A stretch of 35,778 nucleotides of DNA, from positions 1 to 35,778 of the forward strand of contig JAPLBW010000028.1 in NCBI GenBank assembly GCA_026392555.1. Reading direction: 5' to 3'. Made by a program: the position numbers and the translations under genes. This document shows, in pieces, positions 277 to 34,250 of the stretch; position 1 is the stretch's first letter, and each line of letters starts with the position of its first letter. The notes below the pieces were generated by a model that was given only the letters and a program-made list of their open reading frames with translations, had not been told where the DNA came from and made no database searches. Source of the stretch: Actinomycetota bacterium (GTDB lineage Bacteria; Actinomycetota; Actinomycetes; UBA12327).

Positions 277-558
277 TTAGTTGTCGTAGTCCACAACGAC
301 GCGGCTAGTCAGCAGCGGTCGCAACCAACCACCAAATTCCACGTGGTCTGGGTTGGCTTGGTAGGCCTTGAGGTCCTCGACCGAGTCGTGTGTGGTGGTC
401 AGGGCGAGGTCGTAGGAGACTTCTGAACCGACGACGTCCAGGCCAACATGCAAGGTCTTAATCTCGGGGATTTGGGTGACTAACGTCTCCAAGCGCGTCT
501 TGGCCTCGTCGCGGTTGGCGGAATCAGCAAACTTCATCAACACAATGTGAGTAATCAA
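277..558 (-). CDS. Dabb (stress-responsive alpha/beta-barrel) domain protein
   Basis: 93 aa with a TTG start preceded by GGAG. The N-terminus MITHIVLMKF and the size fit the Dabb ferredoxin-like family. It lies 3 nt downstream of the preceding gene, so the two are probably translationally coupled. Confidence 0.7.
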   Translation of the reverse strand: MITHIVLMKFADSANRDEAKTRLETLVTQIPEIKTLHVGLDVVGSEVSYDLALTTTHDSVEDLKAYQANPDHVEFGGWLRPLLTSRVVVDYDN

Positions 559-561: not shown

Positions 562-1203
562 CTAGCTCCGGTCCTTGATGTAATCGAGGGCTTGCTCTTC
601 GGACACAACTTCGGCGTACTTGGCTTGCAGGTCAAAGAGGTTGGCTTCGTGCGGACCAGGGTGGCGATCGCCCACGGCCTCTCGCACGATGATGGGGATA
701 AACCCGTAGGAAACCGTGTCGACGCCGGTTGCACGTACACAGCCTGAGGTCGACCAGCCGGTAATGAGTACGGTGTCGATGCCTTGAGCATGCAAGGTGT
801 TGGCAAGGTCAGTGCCGATGAAGGCTGATGGGTACTGCTTGGTAACGACGAGTTCGTCTCCAACAGGTTCCAGGCCTTCAACCCACTCGCCAAAGGGCGA
901 ACCTTTGTCGAACATGCGAAGAGCGGGAACCTTCTTGTAAAAGTAACCACCGTTAGCGCCGCCGGGTTCGTACTCCACGCGAGTCCAGACAACAGGAACG
1001 CCAGCGGCACGAGCGGCCACGACCAGCCGCTTCATGGATTCAGCAGATGACTCAACACCGGCATACAAGGGTGATTCGGGATCGATGTAGGCCTTGCACA
1101 CATCCACCATGAGCAAGATCGGGTGCTCTCCGAACGTCAGCGACCCATCAAAGGCTCCGACGTAGTTGGCCTGGACATCGCTGTCGAGGGGCTTGGCGCT
1201 CAT
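562..1203 (-). CDS. isochorismatase-family cysteine hydrolase (N-carbamoylsarcosine amidase / maleamate amidohydrolase-like)
   Basis: 213 aa with RBS GAGAGGAG. The D-K-C triad context is visible: LLMVDVCKAY, VVTKQYPSAF, ITGWSTSGCVRAT. Confidence 0.8.
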   Translation of the reverse strand: MSAKPLDSDVQANYVGAFDGSLTFGEHPILLMVDVCKAYIDPESPLYAGVESSAESMKRLVVAARAAGVPVVWTRVEYEPGGANGGYFYKKVPALRMFDKGSPFGEWVEGLEPVGDELVVTKQYPSAFIGTDLANTLHAQGIDTVLITGWSTSGCVRATGVDTVSYGFIPIIVREAVGDRHPGPHEANLFDLQAKYAEVVSEEQALDYIKDRS

Positions 1204-1312: not shown

Positions 1313-2221
1313 ATGACTCGCGTCCAAGTGGTTGAAGTATCTGCCCGTGACGGGCTCCAAAATGACCCCGCGTTCTTGACCACCGAGCAAAAAGTTGAAC
1401 TGATCAGGCGAAGCATTGCGGCCGGCATTGATCGCGCTGAAGTAGCGTCTTTCGCCAACCCCAAGGCCGTGCCTCAGATGGCTGACGCTGAAGGTGTGCT
1501 CGAAGGCCTGGGAGTGATCGATGGGTTCTCCAGTATTGGTTTGGTGCTCAACACCAGAGGCTTTCACCGAGCAGTCACCACCAACGTCAAAGAAGTCAAC
1601 GTCGTCGTGGTGAGCACCGATACCTTCAGTCAGCGCAATCAGCGGATGGATTCGCTGGGGACGCTGGCTGTCTTGGAGGAGGTCATCCCGCTAGCCAGAG
1701 AAGCCGGCATCAAGGCGACCGTGACTTTGGCCGCCAGTTTTGGATGCCCCTTTGAAGGTGAAGTTTCCATTGACCGCACGGTGATGCTGGCTGAAAAAGC
1801 TGCAGAGTACGGCGTTGCCGAAATCGCCTTGGCAGACACCATTGGAGTCGCGGTACCGGCAGATGTAAAGCGACGATTCGAGGCAGTCAAAGCAGTCTCT
1901 GGAGACATTCCGTTACGCGCGCACTTCCACAACACCCGAAATACCGGTTATGCCAACGCGTTAGCCGCTGTGGAGGCCGGAGTATTTATCCTCGATGCCA
2001 GCTTGGCCGGTATTGGCGGCTGTCCGTTCGCGCCTAAGGCCACCGGAAATATCGCGACGGAGGACTTGGTGTACGCCTTGCACCGCAGCGGAATTGAAAC
2101 CGGCCTGGATCTCGACAAGCTACTGGAGGCCAGCGAGTGGTTTGCACAAATCCTGGAACGAAAGACGCCGTCACTGGTCAGTAAGGCCGGAGTCTTCCCG
2201 CCAGCGGAATTGCTTGCCTAG
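1313..2221 (+). CDS. hydroxymethylglutaryl-CoA lyase-like (HMGL family) enzyme
   Basis: 302 aa. It shows VEVSARDGLQN near the N-terminus, then HFHNTRNTGYANALAAVEAG and GIGGCPFAP, which are typical HMGL TIM-barrel motifs. Confidence 0.85.
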   Translation: MTRVQVVEVSARDGLQNDPAFLTTEQKVELIRRSIAAGIDRAEVASFANPKAVPQMADAEGVLEGLGVIDGFSSIGLVLNTRGFHRAVTTNVKEVNVVVVSTDTFSQRNQRMDSLGTLAVLEEVIPLAREAGIKATVTLAASFGCPFEGEVSIDRTVMLAEKAAEYGVAEIALADTIGVAVPADVKRRFEAVKAVSGDIPLRAHFHNTRNTGYANALAAVEAGVFILDASLAGIGGCPFAPKATGNIATEDLVYALHRSGIETGLDLDKLLEASEWFAQILERKTPSLVSKAGVFPPAELLA

Positions 2222-2292: not shown

Positions 2293-3120
2293 CTAGTGAC
2301 TCATGACGGGCTCGGTGCGAGCCGGCACCTTGAAGTCAGCTGGGACTTCGTAAACAACCTCGTTGGTCTCAAGTTGTGCACGCAGTAGTTCGGATTGGCG
2401 ATCGCCAACCATGGGGCCAATGAGATCCCAGACGGGGTCAACCTCACGGTTGAAGATCAATCCTCGGTTGGCCGCATCGCGGGCTACAAGGTCAGTGTCC
2501 TGGATGGAGTCCAGAACGTTTTGAGGCAGACCTTCATCTACGAGCTGGAACCACCAGTCAAGATAAGCCTGAACGTTGACATCCATCGCTGGGTAGTTGT
2601 CGGCGTGAACGCGGTAGGCCAACATCCACTGCGACATGATCGACCGTTGGCGTGGAGTCAGCTGAGCCTCGGACAAGCCTGGATGCGATTTGCCGGCCGC
2701 GTAGGTGTCGTTTAAGTGGCCAAACACGTAGTCCATGTAGGTCCGGTGCGAACCAAGATCAACACGTGGGAGCAGATCCAAGTGCATCGCGTAGAACGGG
2801 GCGCTAAAGACCGAGTCAAAGGTCCAGTGTGGAATGGGTGATTCACCATCGGTAAATGCAAAGACCATATGACTGTCAAGCAGGAAGGGAGCAGGGGCAC
2901 CTGGCGGGTGAATCTCGTTGGTGATGGCGTGGTAGACGACCTTCTTCACCAAGTCATCACCAACCAAAACCCGAGTCATGCCCAGATCCTTGTCTCCAGC
3001 AGCGTTGGTAATGGTGTGGAATGGCCCACCATCTGCGCTGTGAAGTTCTTTCATCCCAAGGCGTGCCTTGATCTGTTCTAGCTTGTCGACATTGAGCTTT
3101 TGGGCCCAGCGTTCTGTCAT
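2293..3120 (-). CDS. ferredoxin-dependent bilin reductase (PcyA-like) superfamily protein, subfamily 1 (paralog of 8316..9074)
   Basis: 275 aa with RBS AAGGAA. The core LLDSHMVFAF..PIPHWTFDSV..MHLDLLPRVDL resembles PcyA LDILHCVMFP..LPLFGCDIV..ADLSP, including His and Asp at near-identical spacing. The C-terminal ARDAANRGLIFNREVDPVW..G..ELLRAQL resembles the FDBR tail. It starts 31 bp downstream of the Rieske oxygenase gene. Confidence 0.6.
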   Translation of the reverse strand: MTERWAQKLNVDKLEQIKARLGMKELHSADGGPFHTITNAAGDKDLGMTRVLVGDDLVKKVVYHAITNEIHPPGAPAPFLLDSHMVFAFTDGESPIPHWTFDSVFSAPFYAMHLDLLPRVDLGSHRTYMDYVFGHLNDTYAAGKSHPGLSEAQLTPRQRSIMSQWMLAYRVHADNYPAMDVNVQAYLDWWFQLVDEGLPQNVLDSIQDTDLVARDAANRGLIFNREVDPVWDLIGPMVGDRQSELLRAQLETNEVVYEVPADFKVPARTEPVMSH

Positions 3121-3151: not shown

Positions 3152-4363
3152 TTAGGACTCTTCGATTTCGTAGGCCGTCTGTCCGCCAGCGTTAGTAGCG
3201 GTTTCTACCTTGGATCCACCCAAGATGGCCCTCGAACTGACCTCCTTGTGCACCCAAGCATTCGCAAGTTCTGGATTGTTCTTGCGGGCTGGTGAAGGAA
3301 TAACTACTGCGACGTCGCGCGGTCCATCGCCAACGATCTGGTGCATGTCAATGCCCCAGCCCTGGTCCAGGAGTTCGTTGCGACGACGACGGTAGGTCGT
3401 TTGCAGGATGTCTGAGCGAATGTGCAGTTCATCCGAGAGCTGGTACGGCAAGATTTCCGGACGTTGCTTCTTGAGCACGCTGTCATCCTGCTTGAAGATG
3501 TCTTGGATGCGCTTGTGGGTGTCCTTGTCGGCCCATTCAGCCTTGATGAAGTCGCGCAGGCCGATGTACATCGAGCGCGTGTGGTTCTCGTCCACGGGGA
3601 CGTGGGCATCGATGAGCACCATGTTGCCGATCGGCAGGGGAACGTACAAAACGTTGATGTTAGGCAAGAAGTAACCGGCCTTGACGTGAGTAAGGACGGG
3701 TCCGTCGCCGACTTCCTTCTTGTACTTGAACTTGAACAACTTGCCCCACAGGCCACCCAAGTTCTTCGGCGGAGCCTTCAGCGGGATGGTGGAAAGACCT
3801 GACCAGGGGGTGGTCGTGACGTCAAAGTCGGGGACCGAGGGGTCCTTGATGTTTCCGAATCGACTGCCGTGGACGAACGCTGCGTGGGAGCCGTCCATGC
3901 CGTTTTCCAGGGCGCGCTCGTAGTTCACCTTCCAGTAGTAACTACCTTCAACGCGCTTGAACTGCGGGTCGTCAAGTTCGGGGATGTCGGGGATGGGGGG
4001 GCGTTCTTCTTCGGGAAGGTCACCCAGGAAGGTCCACACATAGCCGTACTTCTCAATGACGGGGTAGGAGTCAACGCGGGCTTTGGTAGGAATGTTGCGC
4101 TGTGGCTGAGCCGGAATTTTGGTGCACTGACCGTCGCCGCCGTACTGCCAACCGTGGTAAGGACACACGATGGAATCTTTGTCATCGGTCAACCAGCCTT
4201 CTGACAAGGGGCCACCGCGGTGGACACACAGGTCGCTTAAGCAATTGACTTGGCCCTTGGAGTCCCGGAACAACACGAAGTACTGTCCCAATGCCTGCAG
4301 CGACAAGGGGCGGTCAACAACGTTGGAGCTGAATTCAACGGGCCACCATAGATTCTTAAGCAC
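3152..4363 (-). CDS. Rieske [2Fe-2S] non-haem iron oxygenase, alpha-subunit type (PaO/Tic55/KshA-like class)
   Basis: 403 aa with a GTG start after AAGGACGG. The Rieske motif is CVHRGGPLSEGWL-x11-CPYHGWQYGGDGQCTKIP. The mononuclear-iron motif is ENGMDGSHAAFVH (E-N-x2-D-x-S-H-x2-F-x-H). Confidence 0.9.
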   Translation of the reverse strand: MLKNLWWPVEFSSNVVDRPLSLQALGQYFVLFRDSKGQVNCLSDLCVHRGGPLSEGWLTDDKDSIVCPYHGWQYGGDGQCTKIPAQPQRNIPTKARVDSYPVIEKYGYVWTFLGDLPEEERPPIPDIPELDDPQFKRVEGSYYWKVNYERALENGMDGSHAAFVHGSRFGNIKDPSVPDFDVTTTPWSGLSTIPLKAPPKNLGGLWGKLFKFKYKKEVGDGPVLTHVKAGYFLPNINVLYVPLPIGNMVLIDAHVPVDENHTRSMYIGLRDFIKAEWADKDTHKRIQDIFKQDDSVLKKQRPEILPYQLSDELHIRSDILQTTYRRRRNELLDQGWGIDMHQIVGDGPRDVAVVIPSPARKNNPELANAWVHKEVSSRAILGGSKVETATNAGGQTAYEIEES

Positions 4364-4587: not shown

Positions 4588-5871
4588 CTAGTCCTTCTTG
4601 GTGACCGCCGTGGTCATGCCCGCCCAGCCCTGACCGCTGGTGATCTGCTTAGCCACATCGAGCTTGCCTCGCTCGGCCGGGAAGGCCTGGACCAGACCCA
4701 TGGCCGCATCGCGAAGCGATCGGCCAATCTCGTTGTCCATCAGGGCGCCACTGGTGCCGCACATCTTGAGGGCGTTGGCAGTGACTTCAAAGGCACGCTC
4801 ACAAATGGTCCCCTTGGCCAATCGCCAGGTGCGTGCAACGTCAGCGTTGGGCAGCAACGGGGGTTCACTGGATTCCAGATCAATTTGACGGCGTAACCAC
4901 ATGTGGATGTCCTCGAGCTTTTGTTCAGTCTCGCCAATGAGGATTTGGTGCATCGAGCTCGTGGCGATTGATGCGCCGGTGTCACCGAACTTCATCGCCA
5001 TCGTGCGATCGAGTGCGTACTCGTAAGAATTACGCGCCACGCCGGCGTAGATAGAAGCGATAGCGATCTGGTTACCTACCCAGGTTCCGCGAGCAACTTG
5101 AGTCGCGCGTTGGAATCCACCATGCAGGGTCAGTGCCATGTCGTCAGGGACGAACGCCTCGTTAAGAATGCAGCCGTCGTTGTCCGATGCACGCATACCC
5201 AAACCGCTCCAGTGGGTGCGCGGTTCTACGCCATCTTGGGTTCGGTCGACCAAGAACAGGGCCAACCCATTGAGGTCGGTAGCACCTTCTAGGCGGGCGG
5301 TCACTAGGTAGTAGTCAGCAACAGATGATAGGCAGCCAAAGGACTTCGTGCCGCTGACGCTCCAGCCGCCGTCCACCTTCTTGGCTTCGGTTTGAATGAC
5401 GACATTGGCCGTTTCAGCCTTCACCGATTCACTAGCGAAGTTCCCGATCCACAGTGCGTCGGTTCCCATGAAGGTCAAAATCTTTTCCGCAAAAGCTCGA
5501 ACTACGGGGATTTCTTCATCGGTGTACAAACCGGCATCAATAGCACCGAGCGGCAACATGCCGCGGGATGACGAGGAGTTGTGGAAGAAGTACGCAAGTG
5601 CTGTTGAGGCACATGCCGTTCCCATGACGTAGGTCGCGGCACAGAGGTCGCGCAACGTCCCGCCCATGCCGCCGTACTCGGTGGGAATCACCAGACCAAG
5701 AAGTCCGGACTCGGCGATGGCCTTGGCATTGCCTGGAGCAAAGCGTCCTTCGGCATCAGCAATGGGTGCATTCGCGCGCAGGGTGGGCAGGATGCTTTCG
5801 ACGACAGCGGCTCGCTCGCGCTCGGCATCGGTCATGCGGTCGAGGATGCGTTCGGCAATGAGTTGCGTCAT
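4588..5871 (-). CDS. acyl-CoA dehydrogenase-fold flavoprotein (dehydrogenase or flavin monooxygenase type)
   Basis: 427 aa with RBS GGAGA. ESGLLGLVIPTEYGGMGG, the middle beta-domain (GGWSVSGTKSFG) and a C-terminal helical domain are typical of the ACAD family. Confidence 0.8.
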   Translation of the reverse strand: MTQLIAERILDRMTDAERERAAVVESILPTLRANAPIADAEGRFAPGNAKAIAESGLLGLVIPTEYGGMGGTLRDLCAATYVMGTACASTALAYFFHNSSSSRGMLPLGAIDAGLYTDEEIPVVRAFAEKILTFMGTDALWIGNFASESVKAETANVVIQTEAKKVDGGWSVSGTKSFGCLSSVADYYLVTARLEGATDLNGLALFLVDRTQDGVEPRTHWSGLGMRASDNDGCILNEAFVPDDMALTLHGGFQRATQVARGTWVGNQIAIASIYAGVARNSYEYALDRTMAMKFGDTGASIATSSMHQILIGETEQKLEDIHMWLRRQIDLESSEPPLLPNADVARTWRLAKGTICERAFEVTANALKMCGTSGALMDNEIGRSLRDAAMGLVQAFPAERGKLDVAKQITSGQGWAGMTTAVTKKD

Positions 5872-6037: not shown

Positions 6038-6487
6038 ATGGAGATCGTTTTTGAGCAGCCCACATCAGAGGGCGTGCAGGCTGCGTACGAGGTAGCCCGG
6101 CAGTGGTTGCCAGCTTTCGTGGCTGGTAAACGAGCCGAAGAGCACCTCTACGCACCTGGCGTGAGCACGTGGCACAACATCGGTGAATGGGAGGCACCCA
6201 TCCACACCACACCAAGTCGCACGCGACGGATCAACGCCGGCGCGGTTCTTGGAATCGATGAAGTCAAATGCACAGTCTTTGACGGTGGCTTTGTTTTGCA
6301 GGCTGTGACGATTGGCACTTCGGCTGATGGACAACCCGTGCGTGTGCCGACCGTCTTGATTGTGACCGTGACTAATGGGCAGATCGCGCGCTTTGAGGAG
6401 TACGCCGACTCGGCAGCATCGAAAGCCCTCTTTGGCGAAGAGGTTGACGCGATTCGCGACGAGCACGCCAGCTTCGAATCAGAATAA
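6038..6487 (+). CDS. SnoaL/NTF2-like fold protein
   Basis: 149 aa with a strong RBS GGAGG 7 nt upstream. The C-terminal LIVTVTNGQIARFEEYAD is typical of SnoaL-like cone-fold proteins. Confidence 0.5.
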   Translation: MEIVFEQPTSEGVQAAYEVARQWLPAFVAGKRAEEHLYAPGVSTWHNIGEWEAPIHTTPSRTRRINAGAVLGIDEVKCTVFDGGFVLQAVTIGTSADGQPVRVPTVLIVTVTNGQIARFEEYADSAASKALFGEEVDAIRDEHASFESE

Positions 6488-7265: not shown

Positions 7266-8078
7266 TTAGGAAACGGATGGTCGAGGAATCTGGCGGTCAG
7301 CTCCCCAAAGTGCATTGACCAAACGCTCTTCAATGTCAGGTCCAAGTCGGCGAGCGGCGAGGACGTTTGCAGGGTCTCGCTTAACGATGGTACGGCGTAA
7401 AATCAGATCGCGCTCGGCCAATTCAGCACGTTTTTCGACCGGGACAGGCGTAGCTTCCTTGACCCAGCCAAGCCAGATGTCCACCAGGCGGTGGGCCTCG
7501 GTGCGCATGAGTTCCCAGTTCTCCTCGTTGTTGTCCAACGAGGAGCAGATAGCGACGTCGCTGAGTACCTGGCGGATGTAGGCGCTACGGCTAACGAACT
7601 GGGTCAGACGTGGGTCCACGCGCAATTCCAGGTAGTGCTCGTTGCGTGGCTCGATGTACTTGTCGAAGTAGTCGACATTGGTGTTCAAGTCCTGACGCGC
7701 AGGAGTGTCTAAGTAAATCCACGGGCGAGGGGAGGTGCCGAAGGCGATACCCAAGTGCGGAACGTCGATGTGCGGGCCAAGCCAGACCGTCACGTGCACG
7801 TTGACGAACGCGCGCTTGAAGTCGCCGATCCAGGCGTGCGCCAGCCAGTCAACTTCGGGGCCGGTATAGGCATTGAGTGATCCACCAGGCCCCTCAACAC
7901 CGTCAGCGCCATAGTGCTCAAGGTCTGCGTAGCCGGGGTCACGGTGGAGCTCGAAGACCGGGCGAATCTTGTCCATCAATTCGTTAGAGATCTTCCAGCC
8001 GTTTTCCCAAACGTCCGTGACGTCGAGGGCGCCTGCGCCATCAACCATGTCCGCTATGAGAGCAACTGTTTCCGCCAT
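7266..8078 (-). CDS. red chlorophyll catabolite reductase (RCCR)-like / FDBR superfamily protein, subfamily 2 (paralog of 11662..12486)
   Basis: 270 aa with RBS GAGGAA. The blocks GPEVDWLAHAWIG, VDVPHLGIAF, DLNTNVDYFDKYIEP, FVSRSAYIRQVLSDVA and ERDLILRRTIVKRDPANVLAARRLGPDIEERLVNALWG match, in order, my recollection of plant RCCR blocks (IDFVIGSWIH / APNFVVEL / DLVLNPDYLKEYY / YVSPSLFVRSAFSPTA / RRDKSFRRKSIEDDLDLQFPRMFGEEV). Confidence 0.6.
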   Translation of the reverse strand: MAETVALIADMVDGAGALDVTDVWENGWKISNELMDKIRPVFELHRDPGYADLEHYGADGVEGPGGSLNAYTGPEVDWLAHAWIGDFKRAFVNVHVTVWLGPHIDVPHLGIAFGTSPRPWIYLDTPARQDLNTNVDYFDKYIEPRNEHYLELRVDPRLTQFVSRSAYIRQVLSDVAICSSLDNNEENWELMRTEAHRLVDIWLGWVKEATPVPVEKRAELAERDLILRRTIVKRDPANVLAARRLGPDIEERLVNALWGADRQIPRPSVS

Positions 8079-8315
8079 GTTGGATTCCTCGTTTCGGGTG
8101 GAGCAAAAGTGGGGATTGGACGTTGCCTAAGAGTTAGTCTGTTGTCCAAGCCTTCGTGGTTAGTGGCGATACCCTTCCATATCAGGCCTAGCAAAGACAC
8201 CCCGGTTGCCGCCTTTTTACCCTTCGGGCAGGCAACACGGTTATTTCAGGGCTAAAGTCACGGCTTAACCAGCATGGCCCTCACGCCGGGGGCACCACCG
8301 ATGGAGGAGTTTTTC

Positions 8316-9074
8316 ATGAGTTTGCCCAAGGACCTTGCTGACCGCACGCTAGTGGAGATGGTCGAGCGCACCGGCGCGGTTGAAGTCCACGGCGAAGACG
8401 GTGGCGCTTACTTGACCTTGATGAGCCCGTTTGGTCCGGACCCCGTTGGCAAGATGCGGGTGTTCAAGTCGGACACGGTGAAGAAGATCGTCTACTGCGG
8501 GTTGACAGTGGAAAAATTCAAGATGGACACTCACATGATCTTCGGCTTTACCGCAGAAGACTCGCCTTTGCCGCACTTCACCTTGGACTCGGTGAACGCC
8601 AACGGGAGTTTGGCCTTTCACCTTGACCTGATCACGAAGGCGGAGTTGTCTGTTCATGTTCCCTATATGGACTACGTCTATGGCGGTTTGACAGACACGT
8701 TCAATGACACGATCAAGTGGGAAGGGCTCTCACGCGCGCAAGTTGGACCTCGTCAGTACGCAATGATGTCGCCATGGATGTTGGTTAGCCGCGCCACTGA
8801 ACCCACCTTCCGCCGGTTCTCAGGTGAGGATGATGACCAGGGCCGTGGCCCCGTCAAGACGTACTTGAATTACTGGCTTGACTTGGTCGATGCGGGGGTT
8901 CCCGATGATGTCGCGGCGACGGTGAGCACGGACGAAATCATGGCTCACGATCACAAGCTGCGGTACAACTTGTTCAGCCCCGAGGTTGACCCGGTCTGGC
9001 GTGACGTGGGCAAGATCGTGGGCGAAGACACTGCCGAGAAGATGCGCCAGATGCTCTTGTCGAATGCCTGGTAG
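8316..9074 (+). CDS. FDBR (PcyA-like) superfamily protein, subfamily 1 (paralog of 2293..3120)
   Basis: I chose the ATG at 8316 because of the strong RBS GGAGGAG 6 nt upstream and the length match to the paralog; the ORF track starts it at 8274. The core is MDTHMIFGF..PLPHFTLDSV..FHLDL, and the tail is SPEVDPVWRDVGKIVGEDTAEKMRQML. Confidence 0.6.
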   Translation: MSLPKDLADRTLVEMVERTGAVEVHGEDGGAYLTLMSPFGPDPVGKMRVFKSDTVKKIVYCGLTVEKFKMDTHMIFGFTAEDSPLPHFTLDSVNANGSLAFHLDLITKAELSVHVPYMDYVYGGLTDTFNDTIKWEGLSRAQVGPRQYAMMSPWMLVSRATEPTFRRFSGEDDDQGRGPVKTYLNYWLDLVDAGVPDDVAATVSTDEIMAHDHKLRYNLFSPEVDPVWRDVGKIVGEDTAEKMRQMLLSNAW

Positions 9075-9098: not shown

Positions 9099-10706
9099 AT
9101 GGAGACCGTCGAAGAGCGCATTTATCGTCGTCGCTGGTTAACGATGCTTACCCTGGTTTCAGGGTTGATCGTCGTGATCATCGACAACACGATCCTGAAT
9201 GTCGCGTTACCGAGTATCTCGCAGCAACTGGGTGCAAGCCAAGCCCAATTGACCGGTGCGATCTTGTCGTATGCCGTGGTGTTCGGAAGTTTGCAGTTCA
9301 CCGCAGGTGTCCTTGGCGACCGCTGGGGTCGTAAGCGCATCTTCATGATCGGGCTAGTTCTGTTCGGCCTGGCATCGCTGGCCGCGTCGCAGTCGCAAAG
9401 CCCGAACCAGCTGGTCGGGTACCGCGCGCTGATGGCTATCGGGGCTGCGATGATCACGCCTCAAACTCTGTCGATTTTGACTAACGTTTTCCCGCCAGCC
9501 GAGCGTGGGCGCGCGATCGCGATTTGGGCGGGATGCACCGGTGCCTCCTTGGCCCTGGGCCCCATCGTGGGCGGGTTGCTGCTGGATTATTTCTGGTGGG
9601 GCAGCATCTTCTTCATCAATGTCCCCATTGTTATCGGCACGTTCATCGCCGCGTGGTTCCTTGTTCCTGAATCAAAGAACCCCAACGCAGGCAAAGTCGA
9701 TCCGGCCGGCATTGCCTTGTCGGTTGTTGGTTTGGGCGCATTGATTTTTGGTTTGGTGTATGGCGGCGAAGAGCGTGACTGGTCGTCGGTGTTGTCCACC
9801 GGGATGATCGTCTTTGGTGTGGCTGTTCTGGCGTTGTTCGTGCTCGTGGAAAGCAAGATTGCGAGCCCGTCCTTTGACGTTCGCTTCTTTAAAAATCCTC
9901 GCTTTAGTGCCGCGTCGATCGCGGCTGGGTTTGCCTTCTTTGCCCTCTTTGGGATTTCGTTCTTCCTGACCTTCTACTTCCAATTTGTTAAGGGCTTGAC
10001 TCCTTTGCAGGCCGGGTTGTCGGTACTTCCCGTGGGAATTGCTCAGGTGATCTTTGCCCCGCGGGCACCCAAGCTCGTCGCGCGGATCGGACCGAAGTTC
10101 ACCATCGCTTTGGGGCTGATCGTTCTAGCGATGTCTTTGTTCGGCTACGTATTTGTCTCCATAGACGATCCGGTCTGGCACGTCTACGTCCTCGGGTTCT
10201 TCACCGGTGCAGGGTTGGCTAATGTGGTTGCGCCTTCTACTGAATCAGTGATGTCGAGCCTGCCGCCGGAAAATGCTGGGGCAGGTGCTGCGGTGAATAA
10301 CACGACGCGTCAAGTCAGCGGCGCACTCGGTATTGCTGTCTTTGGAACGATCCTGCAGGTGATGTATGCCCGAGCGATTCAGCCATCGTTAGTTTTCTTG
10401 CCTGAATCGGTGCGCGATCAAGCGAGTCGATCCATCGGTGATACCTACGTCGTCCTTCGCGGCCTTGCTGAGACGGACCCAGCCGCAGCGCAAAAAGCTG
10501 GTCAAGAGTTTTTGTGTGAGGCAGGTCAAGCGTGCGCTGCTGGACAGGCCTACCTCACCGGCGTTCACGTCACAGCGGTTATTGCAGCAATCTTTGCGCT
10601 TACTGGCGCGGCTGTGGTCTTGCGATACTTGCCACGGAAGGGAATGGCCGTGAGCTACACGCGGTCGGTACCCGATAGTGAGCCCAGCGCACAGCCTGCC
10701 GAGTAG
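9099..10706 (+). CDS. MFS transporter, DHA2 (EmrB/QacA, 14-TMS) type
   Basis: 535 aa. It shows IIDNTILNVALPSI, GDRWGRKRIF (MFS motif A) and many hydrophobic segments. Confidence 0.85.
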   Translation: METVEERIYRRRWLTMLTLVSGLIVVIIDNTILNVALPSISQQLGASQAQLTGAILSYAVVFGSLQFTAGVLGDRWGRKRIFMIGLVLFGLASLAASQSQSPNQLVGYRALMAIGAAMITPQTLSILTNVFPPAERGRAIAIWAGCTGASLALGPIVGGLLLDYFWWGSIFFINVPIVIGTFIAAWFLVPESKNPNAGKVDPAGIALSVVGLGALIFGLVYGGEERDWSSVLSTGMIVFGVAVLALFVLVESKIASPSFDVRFFKNPRFSAASIAAGFAFFALFGISFFLTFYFQFVKGLTPLQAGLSVLPVGIAQVIFAPRAPKLVARIGPKFTIALGLIVLAMSLFGYVFVSIDDPVWHVYVLGFFTGAGLANVVAPSTESVMSSLPPENAGAGAAVNNTTRQVSGALGIAVFGTILQVMYARAIQPSLVFLPESVRDQASRSIGDTYVVLRGLAETDPAAAQKAGQEFLCEAGQACAAGQAYLTGVHVTAVIAAIFALTGAAVVLRYLPRKGMAVSYTRSVPDSEPSAQPAE

Positions 10707-10714: not shown

Positions 10715-11488
10715 ATGAACTCAGGGCTTGCACAAATCCTCGCAGTGATTGCGGCCGGCTTTAGTGCGGGCGCCATTAATGCGGTGGCTGCTGGGGGAAC
10801 TTTGATTGCCTTCCCAGTGTTGTTGTGGGCCGGTGTTCCGCCGTATTCGGCAAATATTGCCTGCAGCATCGGGTTGCTCCCCGGATATGCCAGCGGTGCT
10901 TATGGCTATCGCCACGTCATGGATCAAGTCGCAGCTATTCGCACGCGGTTAATCGTTGTCGTTTCCCTTGGTGGCGTAGTGGGAGCGTTGTTATTGATCG
11001 TTACACCTCGTGATTCGTTCACCGCCGTTGTGCCGTACTTGATTTTGCTCTCGGTCGGGTTATTTGCTGCGCGTCCTTGGTTAACACGCATGCTTCAAGC
11101 GCGCGGTTCGGGGCCACAGTTAGCCAGCGCCCGCATGAGCGTTGCTTTGGGTGTTTGCATCTTCCTCGCGGGCGCGTATGGCTCGTACTTTGGTGCCGCT
11201 TTGGGGATCGTGTTGTTGACCATTTTGGGCACGCTTTTGCATTCCAACATGAAGGCCAGCAATGGCATGAAGTCAGTGCTGTCGTTTTGCTGCGTAGCTG
11301 CTGGTGCTTGCCTCTTCATCGTGGCCGGCCGCGTGGATTGGCTCCCCGCAGCCCTCTTGGTGGCATCCTCCACTGTCGGTGGCTTTGTCGGTGCTCGCGT
11401 CGGCTTACGAGTCCCAGACGTGGCCTTGCGTTGGATCGTCATTGTCATGGGAACGGCTGCCTCAATTGGCCTTTTCCTCAAAGCCTGA
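10715..11488 (+). CDS. TauE/SafE (TSUP) family anion/sulfite exporter-like membrane protein
   Basis: 257 aa, polytopic. AGFSAGAINAVAAGGTLIAFPVLL at the N-terminus and a repeated half later (VGGFVGARVG) are typical of the TSUP family. Confidence 0.75.
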   Translation: MNSGLAQILAVIAAGFSAGAINAVAAGGTLIAFPVLLWAGVPPYSANIACSIGLLPGYASGAYGYRHVMDQVAAIRTRLIVVVSLGGVVGALLLIVTPRDSFTAVVPYLILLSVGLFAARPWLTRMLQARGSGPQLASARMSVALGVCIFLAGAYGSYFGAALGIVLLTILGTLLHSNMKASNGMKSVLSFCCVAAGACLFIVAGRVDWLPAALLVASSTVGGFVGARVGLRVPDVALRWIVIVMGTAASIGLFLKA

Positions 11489-11661: not shown

Positions 11662-12486
11662 ATGGGCGAGACCATGGTGTCTGTTGAAGAGTTGGTAGCC
11701 CAAAGTGGCCCCGTTGATGTCACGTGGGTCTATGAACAATGGCGCGAGAAGTTGGCCGTAATGATGGCCAAACTGCAGGATCGCTTTGAACTCGTGCCAG
11801 ATGAGTCCACCAATGGTTTAGAAATTGCTGGCGAAATCGGTTCGGGGATTCACGGGCAAGTGCAGTGCTTTGCTGGTCCGGAGATTGACTGGATGGTCTA
11901 TTCGTGGATGGCAGACCCCAAGAACGGATTTGCCAACATGCACATCACGATCAGCCCAGGACCACAGGTAGACGTTCCCCTCTTCGGCATGGCTTTTGCT
12001 TGCTTTGGTGAGCGTCCGTGGGGATTTATGGATTTTGGTGCCCGCCGCGAAGCAGCCGTTAACACCGACTATTACTTCAAGTACTACGAGCCGCTTAATG
12101 AGCGCTGGCTCAATGTTCGACGGGACAATCCGCAACTCGACTGGTTCATGTCGCCATCAGGGTATGTGCGCCAGGTGCTTTCGCCGATCGCTTTTTGTTA
12201 CTCCGGACCGCCTGAGCAAAAGACGGTTGACCTCATCCAAGGTGAAGCCGATTACATGCTTGACGAGTGGATGAAGATGTTCGATGCGGCCGACCCGGTT
12301 CCTGCGGATCAGCAGGACGAGTTGTGCCAATACACCGAAGACTGGCGTAGCACGGTGGCTCAGCTTGACCCAGCCAACAGCATCGCTGTGAAGCTCTTTG
12401 GTCAAGACATCTGTGACCAATTGGTGATGGCGCTGGGTGGAACGCAGCGCCAGTTACCCCATGCCGGCAAGTTCTGGACCAAGTAG
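11662..12486 (+). CDS. RCCR-like / FDBR superfamily protein, subfamily 2 (paralog of 7266..8078)
   Basis: 274 aa with RBS GAGGAGG 5 nt upstream. The blocks GPEIDWMVYSWMAD, VDVPLFGMAF, AVNTDYYFKYYEP, FMSPSGYVRQVLSPIA and LDPANSIAVKLFGQDICDQLVMALGG are collinear with 7266..8078. Confidence 0.6.
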   Translation: MGETMVSVEELVAQSGPVDVTWVYEQWREKLAVMMAKLQDRFELVPDESTNGLEIAGEIGSGIHGQVQCFAGPEIDWMVYSWMADPKNGFANMHITISPGPQVDVPLFGMAFACFGERPWGFMDFGARREAAVNTDYYFKYYEPLNERWLNVRRDNPQLDWFMSPSGYVRQVLSPIAFCYSGPPEQKTVDLIQGEADYMLDEWMKMFDAADPVPADQQDELCQYTEDWRSTVAQLDPANSIAVKLFGQDICDQLVMALGGTQRQLPHAGKFWTK

Positions 12487-13500: not shown

Positions 13501-13711
13501 CAGGTGCGGGTCATCGGTGCGGCGGCGTGGCCTATCGCCACCGCGCTAGGCACATTGTCCGTGGAGTTAGGTGTGGATTAGCCCAGATTCTCGGCTAGGG
13601 GTCTACGACCCAAGACCTGAACTGGGTTCGGGTCTAGACTAAAAACCAGTGAATGTTTCTATCTTAAGAACCGGCCGCAGTGTGTGAAAATTTCTGAGAG
13701 GTAATCAACTC

Positions 13712-14707
13712 ATGACCGATCTTGCGGCTAATTCGGATGCTGCAAATGCACCCATTTTTGTCAACTCTGGCGTAGCGGCGCCTAGTGAATGGCAGAAGAT
13801 CATTGAAGGCACGTGGCACGGCCGCCCGTCGATTTTTGACGGCGATGGCACGCACGTTGGTTACGAGAATGTGGCGCGAGCGAGTGAGTTTTCTAATGGG
13901 CAGACGCACTACTGGATGAACACCAAGTTTGACGGCGGTGGGCACCTGCGTAGTCGCCTTGAGCTCGGTGGAATGTTCTCCTTCGGTGTCATTGACTCCG
14001 ATCAAAACCGGATTTACACGGGGCCCGACTTCTTTGGAGCGGGGCAGCCGTATGGAACGTTCGTTGACTCGAACTACTACTCGCAGGGATGGCAGGCCGA
14101 CCTCGTTACCTGGAACTACATCATCCCGGGCACCGATGTGCAGGTGTATTCGTCGGTTTGTTACGACGGCTGGACGCCAGCAATCGTCTTCGACGGCTTG
14201 TACCTGCGCACCTTTGACCACGAGACTAATCCTGAGACCCAAAAGCGCATTCAAGAGTTCAAGGATCAGGAAGAAGCCCTCGGGCAGATGAATTTTGTGA
14301 CCCCGACGAAGGAAAAGGGAGCATGGAAGGGTTCTGTTGAAGTTTTCGGCGCTGATCAGAAGTTGATCGGTCACAGCGAAGTCGTGATTGAGCATGAGCC
14401 CATTGACTTGATTCGCTCGCGGCAAACGGTGACATGGAGTGGGGTCTTGGAGCGGCAGTACACCTTTGAGCGTGTGCGCCTTGAGCACAAGACCATGTTT
14501 CACGGCCCTGACGTATGGGGCAACCAGATGGCGTATGGCCGTTGTGCTTTCACCGCTCAGCACTTCACCAATGAAGCCACCAAGATCAAGGGCCGCGAGT
14601 TCATGCTGAACTACGACTACGAATTGGTCGTTAACTGGCAGGTCTTTGATGGGAATGCCCTGACGCACGTCGTCGTGGGCGTGCTGACCTGGGAACCTGC
14701 GGTCTGA
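13712..14707 (+). CDS. conserved hypothetical two-domain protein (tandem paralog 1)
   Basis: 331 aa, roughly 50% identical by eye to 14848..15825. Each half begins with a W-x-G strand (GTWHGRPSIFD; GAWKGSVEVFG), suggesting two calycin/lipocalin-like barrels. The antisense 381-aa ORF is Arg-rich and was rejected. Confidence 0.6.
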   Translation: MTDLAANSDAANAPIFVNSGVAAPSEWQKIIEGTWHGRPSIFDGDGTHVGYENVARASEFSNGQTHYWMNTKFDGGGHLRSRLELGGMFSFGVIDSDQNRIYTGPDFFGAGQPYGTFVDSNYYSQGWQADLVTWNYIIPGTDVQVYSSVCYDGWTPAIVFDGLYLRTFDHETNPETQKRIQEFKDQEEALGQMNFVTPTKEKGAWKGSVEVFGADQKLIGHSEVVIEHEPIDLIRSRQTVTWSGVLERQYTFERVRLEHKTMFHGPDVWGNQMAYGRCAFTAQHFTNEATKIKGREFMLNYDYELVVNWQVFDGNALTHVVVGVLTWEPAV

Positions 14708-14728
14708 CCCAGCCCTTGTCGGCTCTAT

Positions 14729-14761
14729 CCTTTGACCTGACCTTTGACCTGACCTTTGAAG
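14729..14761 (+). repeat. 12-bp direct tandem repeat (CCTTTGACCTGA x2.7) in the spacer between the tandem paralogs
   Basis: It reads directly as CCTTTGACCTGA CCTTTGACCTGA CCTTTGAAG. It begins 22 nt after the stop at 14707. Confidence 0.85.
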
Positions 14762-14847
14762 CCTTGTTTTGCGTGATTGACGGGCGATGTGGTCGCAGTT
14801 CAGGCACACTAAGGTGGCTTGACGACACGATCAGGAAGTAGGGATAG

Positions 14848-15825
14848 ATGACCGCGGTGAGTGATCGCCAGAGCAGTGCAGCTAGCGAGCCCAGCGAATG
14901 GCAAAAGAAGATCGCGGGGGAATGGCATGGTCGTCCCGGTTTGTTTGATCCTGAGGGCAACCACGTCGGCTATGAGCGCATTGCGCGCGCCAGTGAGGTA
15001 TTGCCTGACGGCACCACGGTTTACTGGATGAATGGCACCTTGGACGGTTCCGGGCCACTGCGCAACCGTTTCCAACTCGGCGCCGACTTCCGCTTTGAAG
15101 TCATCGACTCCGATGAGAACCGCGTGTACATGGGTCCTGACTTTTATGGCACGGGTCAGCCCTACGGCTTGTTCGTTGATGCGCACTACTACTCACCCGG
15201 ATGGCAAGCCGACCTTCGTACATGGAACCAAGTCCTTCCGGACGGCAAGACCCAGGTTTACTCATCGGTCTTGCACGACGGCTGGAGCGTGTGCGCGGTA
15301 TTTAACGGCTTGTACAAGGTTGTTGATGTTGGCGCGAATGATCAAGAGACCCAAGGCTTCATTGATTCATGGATCCGGGACGAAACAGAGCGCGCGCCTC
15401 GCCCTCATGTCTTGCCAACCAAGCAAAAGGGTGCGTGGACCGGAACTCTTGAGGTCTATGACGCCGCCTCACGGGAGAAGGTAGGCGACAACTTCGTCAC
15501 CATCGACCATGAGCCTTTGTCGCTCGTACGTACCAAGCAGACGATCACCTGGGAAGGTGCTATCAACCGCAAGTACACTTTTGAGCGCTTGCGCCGCGAT
15601 CAAAACACGACCTATGACGGCCCGGACATCATGGGAAATGCGCGTAACTACGGACGTGCCTTATTCACGAGCCAGCACTTCACCGGTGGTGACGTGTGGA
15701 AGATTAAGGGACGCGAATACCTGCTCGATGACTCGCAGTCGTTGAGCATTGTGTGGGAAGCATTTAAGGGCGACATGCTCACTAACGTTATTTTCGGACA
15801 GCTGGATTGGAAGGCACAAGCATGA
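14848..15825 (+). CDS. conserved hypothetical two-domain protein (tandem paralog 2)
   Basis: 325 aa. Blocks shared with paralog 1 include SEWQKKI.GEWHGRP, VIDSDENR.Y.GPDF.G.GQPYG.FVD..YYS.GWQADL.TWN, KGAW.G..EV and KIKGRE. Confidence 0.6.
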   Translation: MTAVSDRQSSAASEPSEWQKKIAGEWHGRPGLFDPEGNHVGYERIARASEVLPDGTTVYWMNGTLDGSGPLRNRFQLGADFRFEVIDSDENRVYMGPDFYGTGQPYGLFVDAHYYSPGWQADLRTWNQVLPDGKTQVYSSVLHDGWSVCAVFNGLYKVVDVGANDQETQGFIDSWIRDETERAPRPHVLPTKQKGAWTGTLEVYDAASREKVGDNFVTIDHEPLSLVRTKQTITWEGAINRKYTFERLRRDQNTTYDGPDIMGNARNYGRALFTSQHFTGGDVWKIKGREYLLDDSQSLSIVWEAFKGDMLTNVIFGQLDWKAQA

Positions 15826-24616: not shown

Positions 24617-26033
24617 TCCCACCTCGGTATAAGAAGCACCCGGGCTTGCCGGATACGGGGTTTAGGCAGGTCGTTGATTCGTAAACAAGGACTCGACCAG
24701 TGTTGCTAGCCGCGTACTGCCCGTTACCGATTGACCCGCCGAACGTAACAGCAGAACTGTATCCGCTTCCGACCTGCCATGCCGCATCGCGGAAGGCGTT
24801 AGCCGTGAGGTTCTTCGGGGCTTTGTCGATGACGGCCTTGAGGAACAAGTTGGCATCGCAGTACTGCAAGCCTTCCTTGTAATTGGGGCGCACACCGTCG
24901 GGCGGGGTAGCTCCGGCTGAATCGATGATTTGCTTGCAGAGCCCCTGATTGGGGGTGGCCGGGTCTGGGAACGGAATGGCTGGATCTAGGCGGATGTCAC
25001 CAGCAGGCAAGACGCCAAAGCCGATCATGCCCGCCAGTGCAGTGTCGACGATGGTCGCCGGGTTGTCTTGCAAGAACAGCGGACTGTCGTAGGAGGAAAT
25101 CGCAAACTTTGCCTTCGACGTAGTGGCTTCTTGGCTGGACAACATGATGGGCAAGATCCGCGCACCACCAACGACGATGATGCGGTCTAGGCCGGAGTTA
25201 GCTGCTCCAGTGAGCGCGGCGGATGAACCAGCGCCGAGGGTTCCGATATTGGCGGTATCAACAAAGAAGGTTTCAGACTTGGTGATGCCGTTGGCAGCGA
25301 AGAAGGGCTGCACGATCTCGGTGATGTCGCGCCGAGCAATTTCATTGTCCACCCCGACAACGGCAACGCCCGCTGTGCCGTTGAACCACCCCTGGTCCTT
25401 CAACGCAGCCAATTCGGTACGGAGGTACCCACCGTATTCCGGCCAGCTAGGCGACCATAGGTAGGGGGAAAACTTCTCGAATTCCTTTTGATCTTGGGCG
25501 AAAAGGGACTCATCCAACATGATCGTCTTGCGTGCGAAATAGCACGGGCGCGCGTTATTTTGGAACTGTCCTTCAAGGACAACAGCGAAAACCTGATCAT
25601 CCTGGGTGAAAGCGTTGCAAAACGATTCAGCGTATTCGGGGTTGTCAAGACCGCCGCCGTACTTCTTAATGATGGGGACGATCTTGCGTCCATTGAGGCC
25701 ACCGTTGGCATTGACTGCATTAACGGAGGCTTGAATTTGCTTGATTACTCCATCGGCGCCACCGTAGTTCGCGGTCTTGAAGCCTAAGGATTCTTGGAGG
25801 TTGCCCAAGTCAGGGACGATGTAGCCGATTTTGATCGAGTCCGCGGTTACACCAGGGGACTCATCATCTGCACCTGCGGCCGCGCCCGATCCCGAGCTTC
25901 CTGATCCGGAGGCAGTGTCAGCCTTCGAGCCACACCCAGCCGCGAGCGTGGCTAGGAGCGCGAGCGCGGCAAGCCAAGTGATCGTTCGAGTCCGATTGCT
26001 GCGAGAAGTCACGAATGAGGGTGCCGGAGACAT
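24594..26033 (-). CDS. ABC transporter substrate-binding lipoprotein (LivK-like), paralog 2
   Basis: I chose the start at the internal ATG 26033 (MSPAPSFV..LATLAAGCGS signal peptide and lipobox, AAGGA upstream). The 76-aa Arg-rich N-terminal extension in the ORF track is implausible. Confidence 0.8.
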   Translation of the reverse strand: MSPAPSFVTSRSNRTRTITWLAALALLATLAAGCGSKADTASGSGSSGSGAAAGADDESPGVTADSIKIGYIVPDLGNLQESLGFKTANYGGADGVIKQIQASVNAVNANGGLNGRKIVPIIKKYGGGLDNPEYAESFCNAFTQDDQVFAVVLEGQFQNNARPCYFARKTIMLDESLFAQDQKEFEKFSPYLWSPSWPEYGGYLRTELAALKDQGWFNGTAGVAVVGVDNEIARRDITEIVQPFFAANGITKSETFFVDTANIGTLGAGSSAALTGAANSGLDRIIVVGGARILPIMLSSQEATTSKAKFAISSYDSPLFLQDNPATIVDTALAGMIGFGVLPAGDIRLDPAIPFPDPATPNQGLCKQIIDSAGATPPDGVRPNYKEGLQYCDANLFLKAVIDKAPKNLTANAFRDAAWQVGSGYSSAVTFGGSIGNGQYAASNTGRVLVYESTTCLNPVSGKPGCFLYRGGNVPFATN

Positions 26034-26393
26034 AGGGGTGAGCGTCCTTTGTGGGGCAGTAGGGAAGTGGCCGAGCCTAGGAACGCGCCTCGTCCTTAAA
26101 ACGGCTGATCCAGGTGCTAGTTGATCTGGATTTATTACACTAAGTCCGGCAGGCGCCCGCGTCAACGAGGTTGGACGACACCGATTTCGCACAATCCTTG
26201 GCAAGTGGAAGGTAAACGGCAGATGGGTTGACGCTGAACGATGCCTGAATCTATTGTTCACACTCCGGAACGTTAGGCATTGCCGGATGCTTCAGATTGC
26301 AGTGTTTCTTCCCCTCATGTGGTGTGGCGGGCAAGAACGCGACAATTGCCTTACCCACCTCGTTCCTGACGAGCCGTCGAATGGATACATAGC

Positions 26394-28714: not shown

Positions 28715-28718
28715 CGAG

Positions 28719-29756: not shown

Positions 29757-29793
29757 GCGATGGATAGTACGCGAGTAAATCGTTGGCGGGAGG

Positions 29794-33164: not shown

Positions 33165-33252
33165 GCCTCCGAAATCGGAGTGCCCTAAGCCTAGGGGGCT
33201 GGTTTATGACCTTGGTGATCAGCGTCCCAGAGCAATCCGCCAAGATGTCGTT

Positions 33253-34183: not shown

Positions 34184-34250
34184 CGCAAGTACCTGTTTGA
34201 CCAGCACCCCTCGTGCTGGAGTAGTAAGCCTCACGGATTCGTCCGTGTTT

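Follow-up and report, generated by a model that had tools for sequence, protein, structure and literature searches.

We analysed a window of 35,778 nucleotides (the whole of contig stretch JAPLBW010000028.1, positions 1 to 35,778, from an Actinomycetota bacterium of the UBA12327 lineage), in which four genes, here called A, B, C and D, code for proteins related to red chlorophyll catabolite reductase (RCCR) and to the ferredoxin-dependent bilin reductases (FDBRs). They form two subfamilies, A and C being members of subfamily 1 and B and D of subfamily 2, and in other bacteria one gene of each subfamily is part of a conserved operon of catabolic-type genes, which probably serves to feed on a chlorophyll- or bilin-type pigment. 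The four genes and the spacer from which B and C diverge are the following.

2293..3120, minus strand: A, subfamily-1 protein of the FDBR/RCCR fold, 275 amino acids, immediately following the Rieske gene in the canonical arrangement
7266..8078, minus strand: B, subfamily-2 protein of the RCCR family, 270 amino acids (Pfam RCC_reductase, RCCR match, AlphaFold2 model)
8079..8315: intergenic spacer from which B and C diverge, presumed to be a promoter region (read from the sequence)
8202..8240: imperfect hairpin or palindrome within the spacer, holding GTTGCC-n20-GGCAAC and kept only in near-identical relatives
8316..9074, plus strand: C, subfamily-1 protein of the FDBR/RCCR fold, 252 amino acids (hhalign to subfamily 2, AlphaFold2 model and Foldseek)
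11662..12486, plus strand: D, subfamily-2 protein of the RCCR family, 274 amino acids (Pfam RCC_reductase), immediately preceding the hydrolase gene, again in the canonical arrangement

All four are present at these coordinates in the open reading frame (ORF) list of the window. Pairwise BLASTP gave 37.5% identity between A and C (E = 4e-54) and 38.6% between B and D (E = 5e-64), with marginal matches across the subfamilies (A-B, E = 9e-5; C-D, E = 7e-4). The original prediction had been of four superfamily genes in two subfamilies, with one member of each transcribed divergently from a shared 237-bp region. Pairwise BLASTP, the alignment of the subfamilies in hhalign and the structural matches agree on the first point, and reading of the sequence confirmed the second, as the minus-strand gene B begins at 8078 and the plus-strand gene C at 8316, leaving 8079-8315 between them. 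C opens a run of ten plus-strand genes that ends at 18114. A longer ORF for C is available from an upstream ATG at 8274, and we prefer 8316 because the N terminus of the family is MSLP, GGAGGAG lies 7 nt upstream, and the gene calls on other contigs are also 252 amino acids long.

B and D are the RCCR-like pair, as had been predicted, with both of them above the gathering cutoff (24.9 bits) of the Pfam model RCC_reductase (PF06405), B at 47.8 bits and D at 27.1 bits. D is also the sole one of the four to match Fe_bilin_red (PF05996), with 29.3 bits, below the gathering cutoff of 31. In sequence searches B matched Arabidopsis RCCR at E = 2.5e-9, and a subfamily-2 profile built from 41 sequences matched Arabidopsis RCCR (E = 9e-21), PebB (E = 1.9e-9) and HY2 (E = 3.5e-4). 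A and C had no Pfam match at E ≤ 0.01, did not reach the RCC_reductase cutoff and had no match in NCBIfam, and searches of the PDB sequences with C and with the subfamily-1 profile (profile threshold, E ≤ 0.1) found nothing. As the direct sequence searches gave nothing, the homology of subfamily 1 was shown via subfamily 2 and via structure. The profiles of the two subfamilies aligned in hhalign over 222 columns with a probability of 98.2% (E = 3.4e-14). The AlphaFold2 models of C and B (pLDDT of 94.6 and 95.2, respectively) each had 45 significant Foldseek matches in the PDB, with TM scores of 0.6 to 0.76, nearly all of them RCCR or FDBR chains and the rest PcyA-homologue subunits of two cryo-electron microscopy complexes. 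RCCR came first for both models (C, E = 1.5e-10; B, E = 1.3e-13), followed in the case of C by PcyA, PebB, HY2 and PebA, with coproporphyrinogen oxidase only a weak match. Overall, subfamily 1 is nearest in structure to plant RCCR and not to PcyA, and the same applies to subfamily 2. Similarity to the FDBRs, the lack of which had been named beforehand as a possible refutation, was found at significant E values by both profile and structure. From sequence profiles and structural models (made for B and C, with A and D assigned to the fold by homology), all four proteins are members of the FDBR/RCCR superfamily, with the predicted alpha/beta/alpha sandwich fold of RCCR, PcyA, PebA, PebB, PebS and HY2, and appear to be cofactor-less proteins of reductase type, in two pairs. 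Subfamily 1 is a new protein family in the bilin reductase superfamily that is not covered by a Pfam model; an exhaustive profile search recovered 295 representatives at 50% identity, 200 of them with E ≤ 1e-10.

A more specific claim was that subfamily 1 keeps a His/Asp pair like the catalytic pair of PcyA and that subfamily 2 lacks the Asp. Positions His88 and Asp105 were fixed on the Synechocystis PcyA sequence, which is identical to that of PDB 2d1e. Alignments with PcyA in hhalign were non-significant for both subfamilies (E = 0.06 to 0.25; subfamily 1, with C, 0.06 to 0.12), the PcyA queries being a single sequence or an alignment of 30 homologues that are all at least 61% identical and hence form a shallow profile; residue correspondences with PcyA were used only where several alignments agreed, and the match at the level of the fold is significant. 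The Asp of the pair held up, as Asp91 of C lies opposite PcyA Asp105 and RCCR Glu154 in every alignment made. From the RCCR structure papers, we take Glu154 to be a functional acidic residue on the central beta-strand. For the His, the alignments conflict. The spacing is H-x17-D in both A and C and H88-x16-D105 in PcyA, and in ungapped alignments with PcyA, both direct and by family profile, Met74 of subfamily 1 and not His73 lies opposite His88. His73 is equated, through a gap of one residue in the significant alignment of the two subfamily profiles, with His95 of subfamily 2, which itself lies opposite PcyA His88 with identical spacing. Among unbiased representatives of subfamily 1, His73 is kept in 58%, Pro86 in 100%, His87 in 96%, Asp or Glu at 91 in 93%, Asp104 in 92% and Asp225 in 85%. 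Full invariance, including Asp225 (85/85), was seen in a set of 85 loci, although this is partly circular, as the loci had been found with patterns over two of the motifs. A retains all the family-invariant residues (D71, H73, H87, D91, H102, D104 and D225 in the numbering of C).

For subfamily 2, the absence of the Asp is clear. Ala112 of B takes the position of C Asp91 and RCCR Glu154, both in the alignments with RCCR and in that of the two subfamilies, and Ala112, His95 and Asp235 are invariant in all 67 subfamily-2 sequences, which had been gathered by gene adjacency. A second acidic residue is common to both subfamilies: Asp225 of C and Asp235 of B, in an RDPAN motif, lie opposite RCCR Asp291 and PcyA Asp220. 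D departs from two near-invariant residues of its subfamily (H81Y and H108L, His108 being found in 64 of 67 sequences), substitutions that suggest a function altered relative to that of B.

To place these genes in a wider context, we scanned one genome per species and obtained 466 loci encoding a subfamily-1 relative, in Actinomycetota (Nocardioides, Mumia, Aeromicrobium, Actinomadura, Actinocorallia, Dactylosporangium, Micromonospora, Catellatospora and Nocardia) and Chloroflexota (Anaerolineae, Caldilineales and Ardenticatenaceae). Neighbours were counted in 61 loci of these two phyla with at least 18 kb of sequence. The alpha/beta hydrolase is near subfamily 1 in all 61 loci, the Rieske oxygenase and a protein of 320 amino acids in 60 each, a short-chain dehydrogenase/reductase (SDR) in 57, subfamily 2 in 55, an aldehyde dehydrogenase in 50, an Amdase-like protein in 49, a FAD monooxygenase in 41, an acyl-CoA-dehydrogenase (ACAD)-like protein in 31 and an isocitrate lyase (ICL)-like protein in 30. 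The canonical core is co-directional, in the order subfamily 2, alpha/beta hydrolase, Rieske, subfamily 1, 320-amino-acid protein, SDR, membrane protein and Amdase-like protein. The upstream part consists of a regulator, a flavin reductase::HMG-CoA-lyase-like gene, an ACAD-fold gene, an aldehyde dehydrogenase, a methylisocitrate-lyase-like gene, a FAD monooxygenase, a further aldehyde dehydrogenase and, in parentheses as it were, Dabb and CN_hydrolase genes. In the cultured-strain loci of Aeromicrobium, Nocardioides and Dactylosporangium, gene order is fixed and stop and start codons overlap. One subfamily-1 and one subfamily-2 gene is the normal state of this operon, and a second copy of either within 10 kb was found in none of the 61 loci, all outside the lineage of the window, so that two copies of each per locus are indeed unusual. 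Catabolic-type genes at the loci include uptake systems of the ATP-binding cassette (ABC) type, aldehyde dehydrogenases, methylisocitrate-lyase-like and HMG-CoA-lyase-like genes, CN_hydrolase genes and isochorismatase-type amidohydrolases. None of the accessory enzymes scored above an NCBIfam equivalog cutoff, and hence no characterised pathway was recognised. The operon is conserved among soil and water bacteria and is apparently undescribed. A lone subfamily-2 gene in Nonomuraea sp. CA-218870 (L002), 47% identical to B, has no operon partners nearby, so subfamily 2 can also occur outside the operon.

The counterparts of this operon in the window, together with the genes that accompany B, are listed below.

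3152..4363, minus strand: Rieske non-heme-iron oxygenase of alpha-subunit type, 403 amino acids (Pfam Rieske and VanA_C)
4588..5871, minus strand: ACAD-fold protein (Pfam ACAD N, M and C; weak NCBIfam matches of HsaA, DszC and SfnB types)
6038..6487, plus strand: small SnoaL-like protein, 149 amino acids (weak Pfam SnoaL_2), found with B-type genes in L005-L008
6561..7238, minus strand: 225-amino-acid protein, 27 bp downstream of B, with no Pfam match, kept with B in L005-L008
12505..13500, plus strand: alpha/beta serine hydrolase, 331 amino acids (Pfam Abhydrolase_6), with a GHSGG nucleophile elbow at residue 155
13712..14707, plus strand: 320-amino-acid protein, copy 1, with no Pfam match, 54% identical to the single Aeromicrobium copy
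14848..15825, plus strand: 320-amino-acid protein, copy 2, with no Pfam, NCBIfam or PDB match
15807..16655, plus strand: SDR (Pfam adh_short)
16655..17356, plus strand: hydrophobic membrane protein, 233 amino acids; canonical operons have a syntenic gene of 210 to 240 amino acids
17368..18114, plus strand: protein of the Asp/Glu-racemase superfamily, of arylmalonate-decarboxylase/maleate-isomerase type (Pfam Amdase; PDB matches to both enzymes)

The window keeps the canonical adjacencies of the Rieske gene with A, of D with the hydrolase gene, and of the 320-amino-acid protein with the SDR, the membrane protein and the Amdase-like protein, with the Rieske-A block moved to the opposite strand. 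Added to these is an extra set made up of B with the 225-amino-acid and SnoaL-like genes, C, and the second 320-amino-acid gene. Three metagenome bins (L005-L007, 74 to 98% identity) have the same layout, and in one that is more distant (L008) the divergent subfamily-2/subfamily-1 pair is accompanied by a hydrolase, the 225-amino-acid gene and the SnoaL-like gene. Two bins (L004 and L006) are titled 'Bifidobacterium breve' and carry copies 93 to 98% identical to this locus of 57% G+C, a label that looks wrong. Recent tandem duplication or local expansion was rejected as the origin of the extra set, since the window paralogs are among the most distant pairs of their families (ranks 64 to 84 of 84 for A versus C and 51 to 64 of 66 for B versus D in the distance matrices). 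Each of the four proteins has nearer relatives among the orthologues of other genera than in its own window partner, which argues that the duplicates are ancient or horizontally acquired. The extra set and the second 320-amino-acid copy suggest two substrate-specific versions of the same chemistry; in this lineage the operon would have been split and joined by an anciently diverged set, with B and C co-regulated from the spacer that they share.

That spacer probably holds divergent promoters. It has no match to an Rfam family and no sigma-70 consensus site, a consensus that actinobacterial promoters need not match, and the window has no regulator gene, whereas the canonical loci carry regulators of GntR or IclR type. 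The inverted repeat GTTGCC-n20-GGCAAC that had been pointed out there is present, with arms at 8205-8210 and 8231-8236, but the 6-nt arms are at chance level (four arm pairs with a spacing of up to 60 nt in 270 nt, against about three expected by our own chance estimate) and are weak evidence for anything. Together with its flanks, the repeat forms an imperfect stem of 13 bp (8202-8240, -19 kcal/mol), which is moderately unusual (z = -3.0, with 2 of 200 shuffles folding equally well). Only the closest relative (L006) retains it in full, with L005 keeping part of it and L007 lacking it.

With respect to the partner proteins, the Rieske oxygenase has the motifs CxH..CxxH at residues 46-70 and ExxxDxxHxxxxH at residues 153-165. 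The hydrolase has only weak PDB matches, of cutinase, PETase and DLH types, and none could be settled on as its specific relative, a match to chlorophyllase being sub-threshold. The two copies of the 320-amino-acid protein are about 50% identical to each other, and the protein matches nothing in Pfam, NCBIfam or the PDB even as a profile; its N-terminal and C-terminal halves form an internal repeat (hhalign E = 2.9e-4) with a GxWxG-type motif in each half. An ORF of 381 amino acids runs antisense to copy 1 (13664-14809, minus strand), but as its tblastn matches coincide with those of the sense gene and are weaker, it is most likely a shadow ORF rather than a true gene. The ACAD-fold gene usually adjoins a flavin reductase at the loci of relatives, and the window protein probably supplies the oxygenase of a two-component flavin monooxygenase.

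The closest tie is between the oxygenase and subfamily 1. A natural fusion of a VanA_C-type Rieske protein with a subfamily-1 protein occurs on at least six contigs, the longest of 30.8 kb. This fusion and the constant adjacency of the two genes argue that what the Rieske oxygenase produces is then acted on by subfamily 1, which is also how RCCR relates to PAO, its companion enzyme in plants (PMC8219035). Two of the metagenomic fusions (P0250 and P0355) are rich in Lys, Asn and Ser and have a long N-terminal extension, and their composition and extension point to a source organism very different from that of the window. A 1,189-amino-acid read-through of subfamily 2, hydrolase, Rieske and subfamily 1 (P0278) looked like a gene-calling artefact and was not used. 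In other subfamily-1 relatives the fusion partner is an NAD(P)-binding Rossmann domain. Among transcripts of heterotrophic protists, those of Diphylleia rotans (P0229) and Rigifila ramosa (P0308) also combine a subfamily-1-like with an NAD(P)-binding domain; P0308 has in addition ankyrin repeats and a FYVE finger, so bacterial contamination is unlikely in its case.

Taking fold, residues and context together, we favour, at about even chances, a tetrapyrrole catabolic pathway with a PAO/RCCR-like core. A tetrapyrrole would be the substrate, since all characterised proteins with this fold act on tetrapyrroles, and the core is suggested by the trio of hydrolase, Rieske oxygenase and reductase, which parallels the plant order of PPH or MES16 (alpha/beta hydrolases), PAO (Rieske) and RCCR (PMC8219035, PMC4950323). 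The pathway would begin with the uptake of a pigment-derived tetrapyrrole, our favoured candidate being a chlorophyll derivative such as pheophorbide or a phyllobilin. The alpha/beta hydrolase would then strip an ester group, and the Rieske protein would oxygenate and probably open the molecule, in the role of PAO. Subfamily 1, as the direct partner of the oxygenase and with both acidic residues of RCCR and the FDBRs, would reduce a double bond of the product, in the role of RCCR, and subfamily 2, which lacks the central acid, may carry out a second, different reduction or assist subfamily 1. The SDR, the decarboxylase/isomerase-like protein, the flavin monooxygenases, aldehyde dehydrogenases, lyases and C-N hydrolases would finally yield central metabolites and ammonia. 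In such a scheme the Amdase-like protein could decarboxylate the beta-keto acid left by removal of a methyl ester, and the aldehyde dehydrogenases could oxidise the formyl group made by ring opening. The maleamate branch of nicotinate catabolism offers an analogy for the last steps, the breakdown of maleimide or maleamate fragments. The isochorismatase-type and CN_hydrolase amidohydrolases and the maleate-isomerase-like, ICL-like and HMG-CoA-lyase-like proteins would fit such a breakdown. Chlorophyll and heme are degraded chemically to maleimide-type monopyrroles (PMC7318184).

Several observations weigh against this proposal. Its Rieske protein has neither a PaO domain nor a C-terminal CxxC in the Pfam search and the sequence, and its nearest solved relatives are SxtT, NdmA and DdmC. 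As we take the PaO C-terminal domain (PF08417) and the C-terminal CxxC to be hallmarks of the PAO/TIC55/CAO clade, and the window protein has VanA_C instead, we rejected it as a PAO orthologue. Subfamily 2 has no equivalent of RCCR Glu154, and no genes for a ferredoxin, a Rieske reductase or a Mg-dechelatase (Staygreen) were seen in the window or the canonical loci; the NAD(P)-binding fusions hint that the reductant may not be ferredoxin. The binding proteins of the uptake system are of amino-acid/amide type (Peripla_BP_6), hardly an obvious match to a large pigment. Finally, whatever goes beyond residues, fold and context in this scheme is what we infer from them.

The plant system is among the closest known counterparts. 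RCCR/ACD2 (PDB 2ZXL and 3AGA) has the same fold and ranks first among the structural matches of either subfamily, subfamily 2 scores above the cutoff of the Pfam model of RCCR, both subfamilies have the equivalent of Asp291, and the genes lie beside a Rieske and an alpha/beta hydrolase gene in a mirror of PPH or MES16, PAO and RCCR. Unlike in plants, the sequences are only 14 to 22% identical to RCCR, subfamily 1 fails the Pfam model, subfamily 2 has Ala for Glu154, the oxygenase is of VanA_C and not of PaO type, and the hosts are non-phototrophic bacteria with the genes in a degradative operon of about 16 genes and not in a detoxification route.

A bolder form of the same proposal, doubtful as it stands, is that this would be the first genetically defined bacterial pathway for the complete mineralisation of chlorophyll-derived tetrapyrroles, with an esterase, a non-PAO Rieske oxygenase that opens the macrocycle, and a heterodimeric reductase in which subfamily 1 is catalytic and subfamily 2 provides altered chemistry or a scaffold, followed by conversion to maleimide- or maleate-type acids and ammonia. 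If true, the occurrence of related domains in protists that feed on algae or bacteria would suggest a more widespread and so far unrecognised route by which heterotrophs cope with ingested pigment.

The substrate could instead be a heme-derived bilin that is already open (biliverdin, a cyanobacterial phycobilin or a urobilinoid), degraded with FDBR-type reductions and with a Rieske protein that hydroxylates or cleaves a methine bridge. The FDBRs (PcyA, PebA, PebB, PebS and HY2) share the fold at Foldseek E values of 1e-8 to 1e-10, subfamily 1 has the FDBR-type pair of acidic residues, at D105 and D220 of PcyA, subfamily 2 has a His at H88, and D scores nearly equally on Fe_bilin_red and RCC_reductase. 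The habitats of the carriers are rich in bilins, close relatives being uncultured Actinomycetota and Chloroflexota bins, and uptake through binding proteins suits water-soluble dicarboxylic bilins better than chlorophyll. Free bilins, however, offer neither an ester to hydrolyse nor a ring to open, yet it is the hydrolase and the Rieske oxygenase that recur most constantly at the loci, and heme oxygenase was seen in no examined locus. Both subfamilies are structurally closest to RCCR and not to a biliverdin reductase of FDBR type, the best profile alignment to the PcyA family is non-significant (E = 0.06), and neither subfamily meets the Fe_bilin_red cutoff. We regard the bilin substrate as unlikely.

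It also seems improbable that the fold has been recruited for something other than a tetrapyrrole, for example a conjugated N-heterocyclic or aromatic natural product, in an ordinary degradation of aromatic type whose likeness to chlorophyll breakdown is coincidental. The Rieske oxygenase, flavin monooxygenases, hydrolase, SDR and aldehyde dehydrogenases are all generic types of aromatic catabolism, none of them above an NCBIfam equivalog cutoff, subfamily 1 has no sequence-level match to a characterised protein, and the oxygenase lacks the features of PAO. All solved or characterised members of the fold (RCCR, PcyA, PebA/B/S, HY2 and, distantly, coproporphyrinogen oxidase) nonetheless act on tetrapyrroles, only such proteins are among the significant structural matches, and the residues that contact and protonate the tetrapyrrole in RCCR and FDBR enzymes are the conserved ones in the two subfamilies.

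The pre-PcyA FDBRs of Rockwell et al. (2023) also belong to conserved clusters of superfamily genes in non-photosynthetic bacteria, with a heme oxygenase, an Fe-S protein, two V4R proteins and bilin-binding globins, or with a B12-domain protein and a globin (PMC10151467, PMC13446030), unlike the operon described here, which has oxygenases, hydrolases and dehydrogenases in their place. Synthesis of a bilin as chromophore or signal, to be used by a photoreceptor or a bilin-binding protein in the manner of these clusters, is very unlikely and was rejected on gene content, for although active FDBRs are known from heterotrophic bacteria (PMC10151467, PMC13446030) and the 320-amino-acid protein could be a binding protein, genes for heme oxygenase, V4R, Fe-S protein, globin/BBAG, phytochrome or GAF were found in no examined locus, and the constant partners are degradative enzymes and uptake systems.

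Returning to the favoured PAO/RCCR-like pathway, the literature covered comprises plant RCCR, RCCR-like genes of cyanobacteria (PMC2716323), an RCCR-related outgroup in FDBR trees, and the pre-PcyA clusters (PMC10151467, PMC13446030). The tandem genes Npun_R3279 and Npun_R3277 of Nostoc punctiforme (PMC2716323) are another bacterial case of neighbouring RCCR-like genes, with no assigned function, but in that phototroph both belong to one family and resemble each other, while the operon pairs two distinct subfamilies 1:1 in non-phototrophs. In the literature covered, which is incomplete, so that an earlier account may exist elsewhere, we found no description of the operon, of subfamily 1, or of bacterial genes for the mineralisation of chlorophyll or bilins. 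The new elements are the subfamily-1 family, its 1:1 pairing with a bacterial RCCR family that lacks the catalytic acid, and the natural fusion of oxygenase and reductase. Together they appear to represent a module of RCCR/FDBR type found in a new setting and accompanied by a new sister family, with a putative function. To our knowledge, the enzymology of chlorophyll breakdown is known for plants and algae only, where it ends in stored phyllobilins, and the use of chlorophyll derivatives, phyllobilins and bilins by heterotrophs is essentially uncharted. About 10^12 kg of chlorophyll is made and destroyed per year (PMC7318184). As the operon occurs in cultured strains such as Aeromicrobium wangtongii, Nocardioides pantholopis and Dactylosporangium sucinum, the question is testable, and bacterial RCCR-family genes in a catabolic setting would be a plausible source of plant RCCR.

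The remaining genes around the locus are as follows.

277-558, minus strand: Dabb protein (Pfam/NCBIfam), also found in canonical clusters
562-1203, minus strand: isochorismatase-like amidohydrolase (Pfam/NCBIfam)
1313-2221, plus strand: HMG-CoA-lyase-like protein (Pfam/NCBIfam), with similar genes also in canonical clusters
9099..10706, plus strand: DHA2-type major facilitator superfamily (MFS) transporter (Pfam, NCBIfam), lineage specific, in 5 of 61 loci
10715..11488, plus strand: TauE/SafE-family membrane protein (Pfam TauE), lineage specific, in none of the 61 full-length comparison loci
18121..26261, minus strand: ABC uptake system of two Peripla_BP_6 binding proteins and fused permease/ATPase genes (Pfam)

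Homologues of the binding proteins flank the operon in about 22 of the 61 loci. In the window they are encoded at 18121-19545 and 24594-26261, on either side of unusual transporter ORFs (19567-21954, 21891-22394 and 22391-24622, all on the minus strand), among which an ABC ATPase is fused to a permease of branched-chain type in one case and combined with an MFS_1 domain in another. Beyond them, 26394-31092 codes for a WxL-interacting protein, a WxL-domain protein and a 432-amino-acid protein with a neocarzinostatin-like chromophore-binding domain. In Mumia quercus (L009), homologues of the WxL-interacting and neocarzinostatin-like proteins also flank the operon, together with a binding protein, and these surface genes may form a system of substrate capture. 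The tRNA genes just outside the locus, at 33089-34427 (tRNA-Lys, minus strand; a tRNA-Glu/Asp/Phe cluster, plus strand), may mark a boundary of the variable region.

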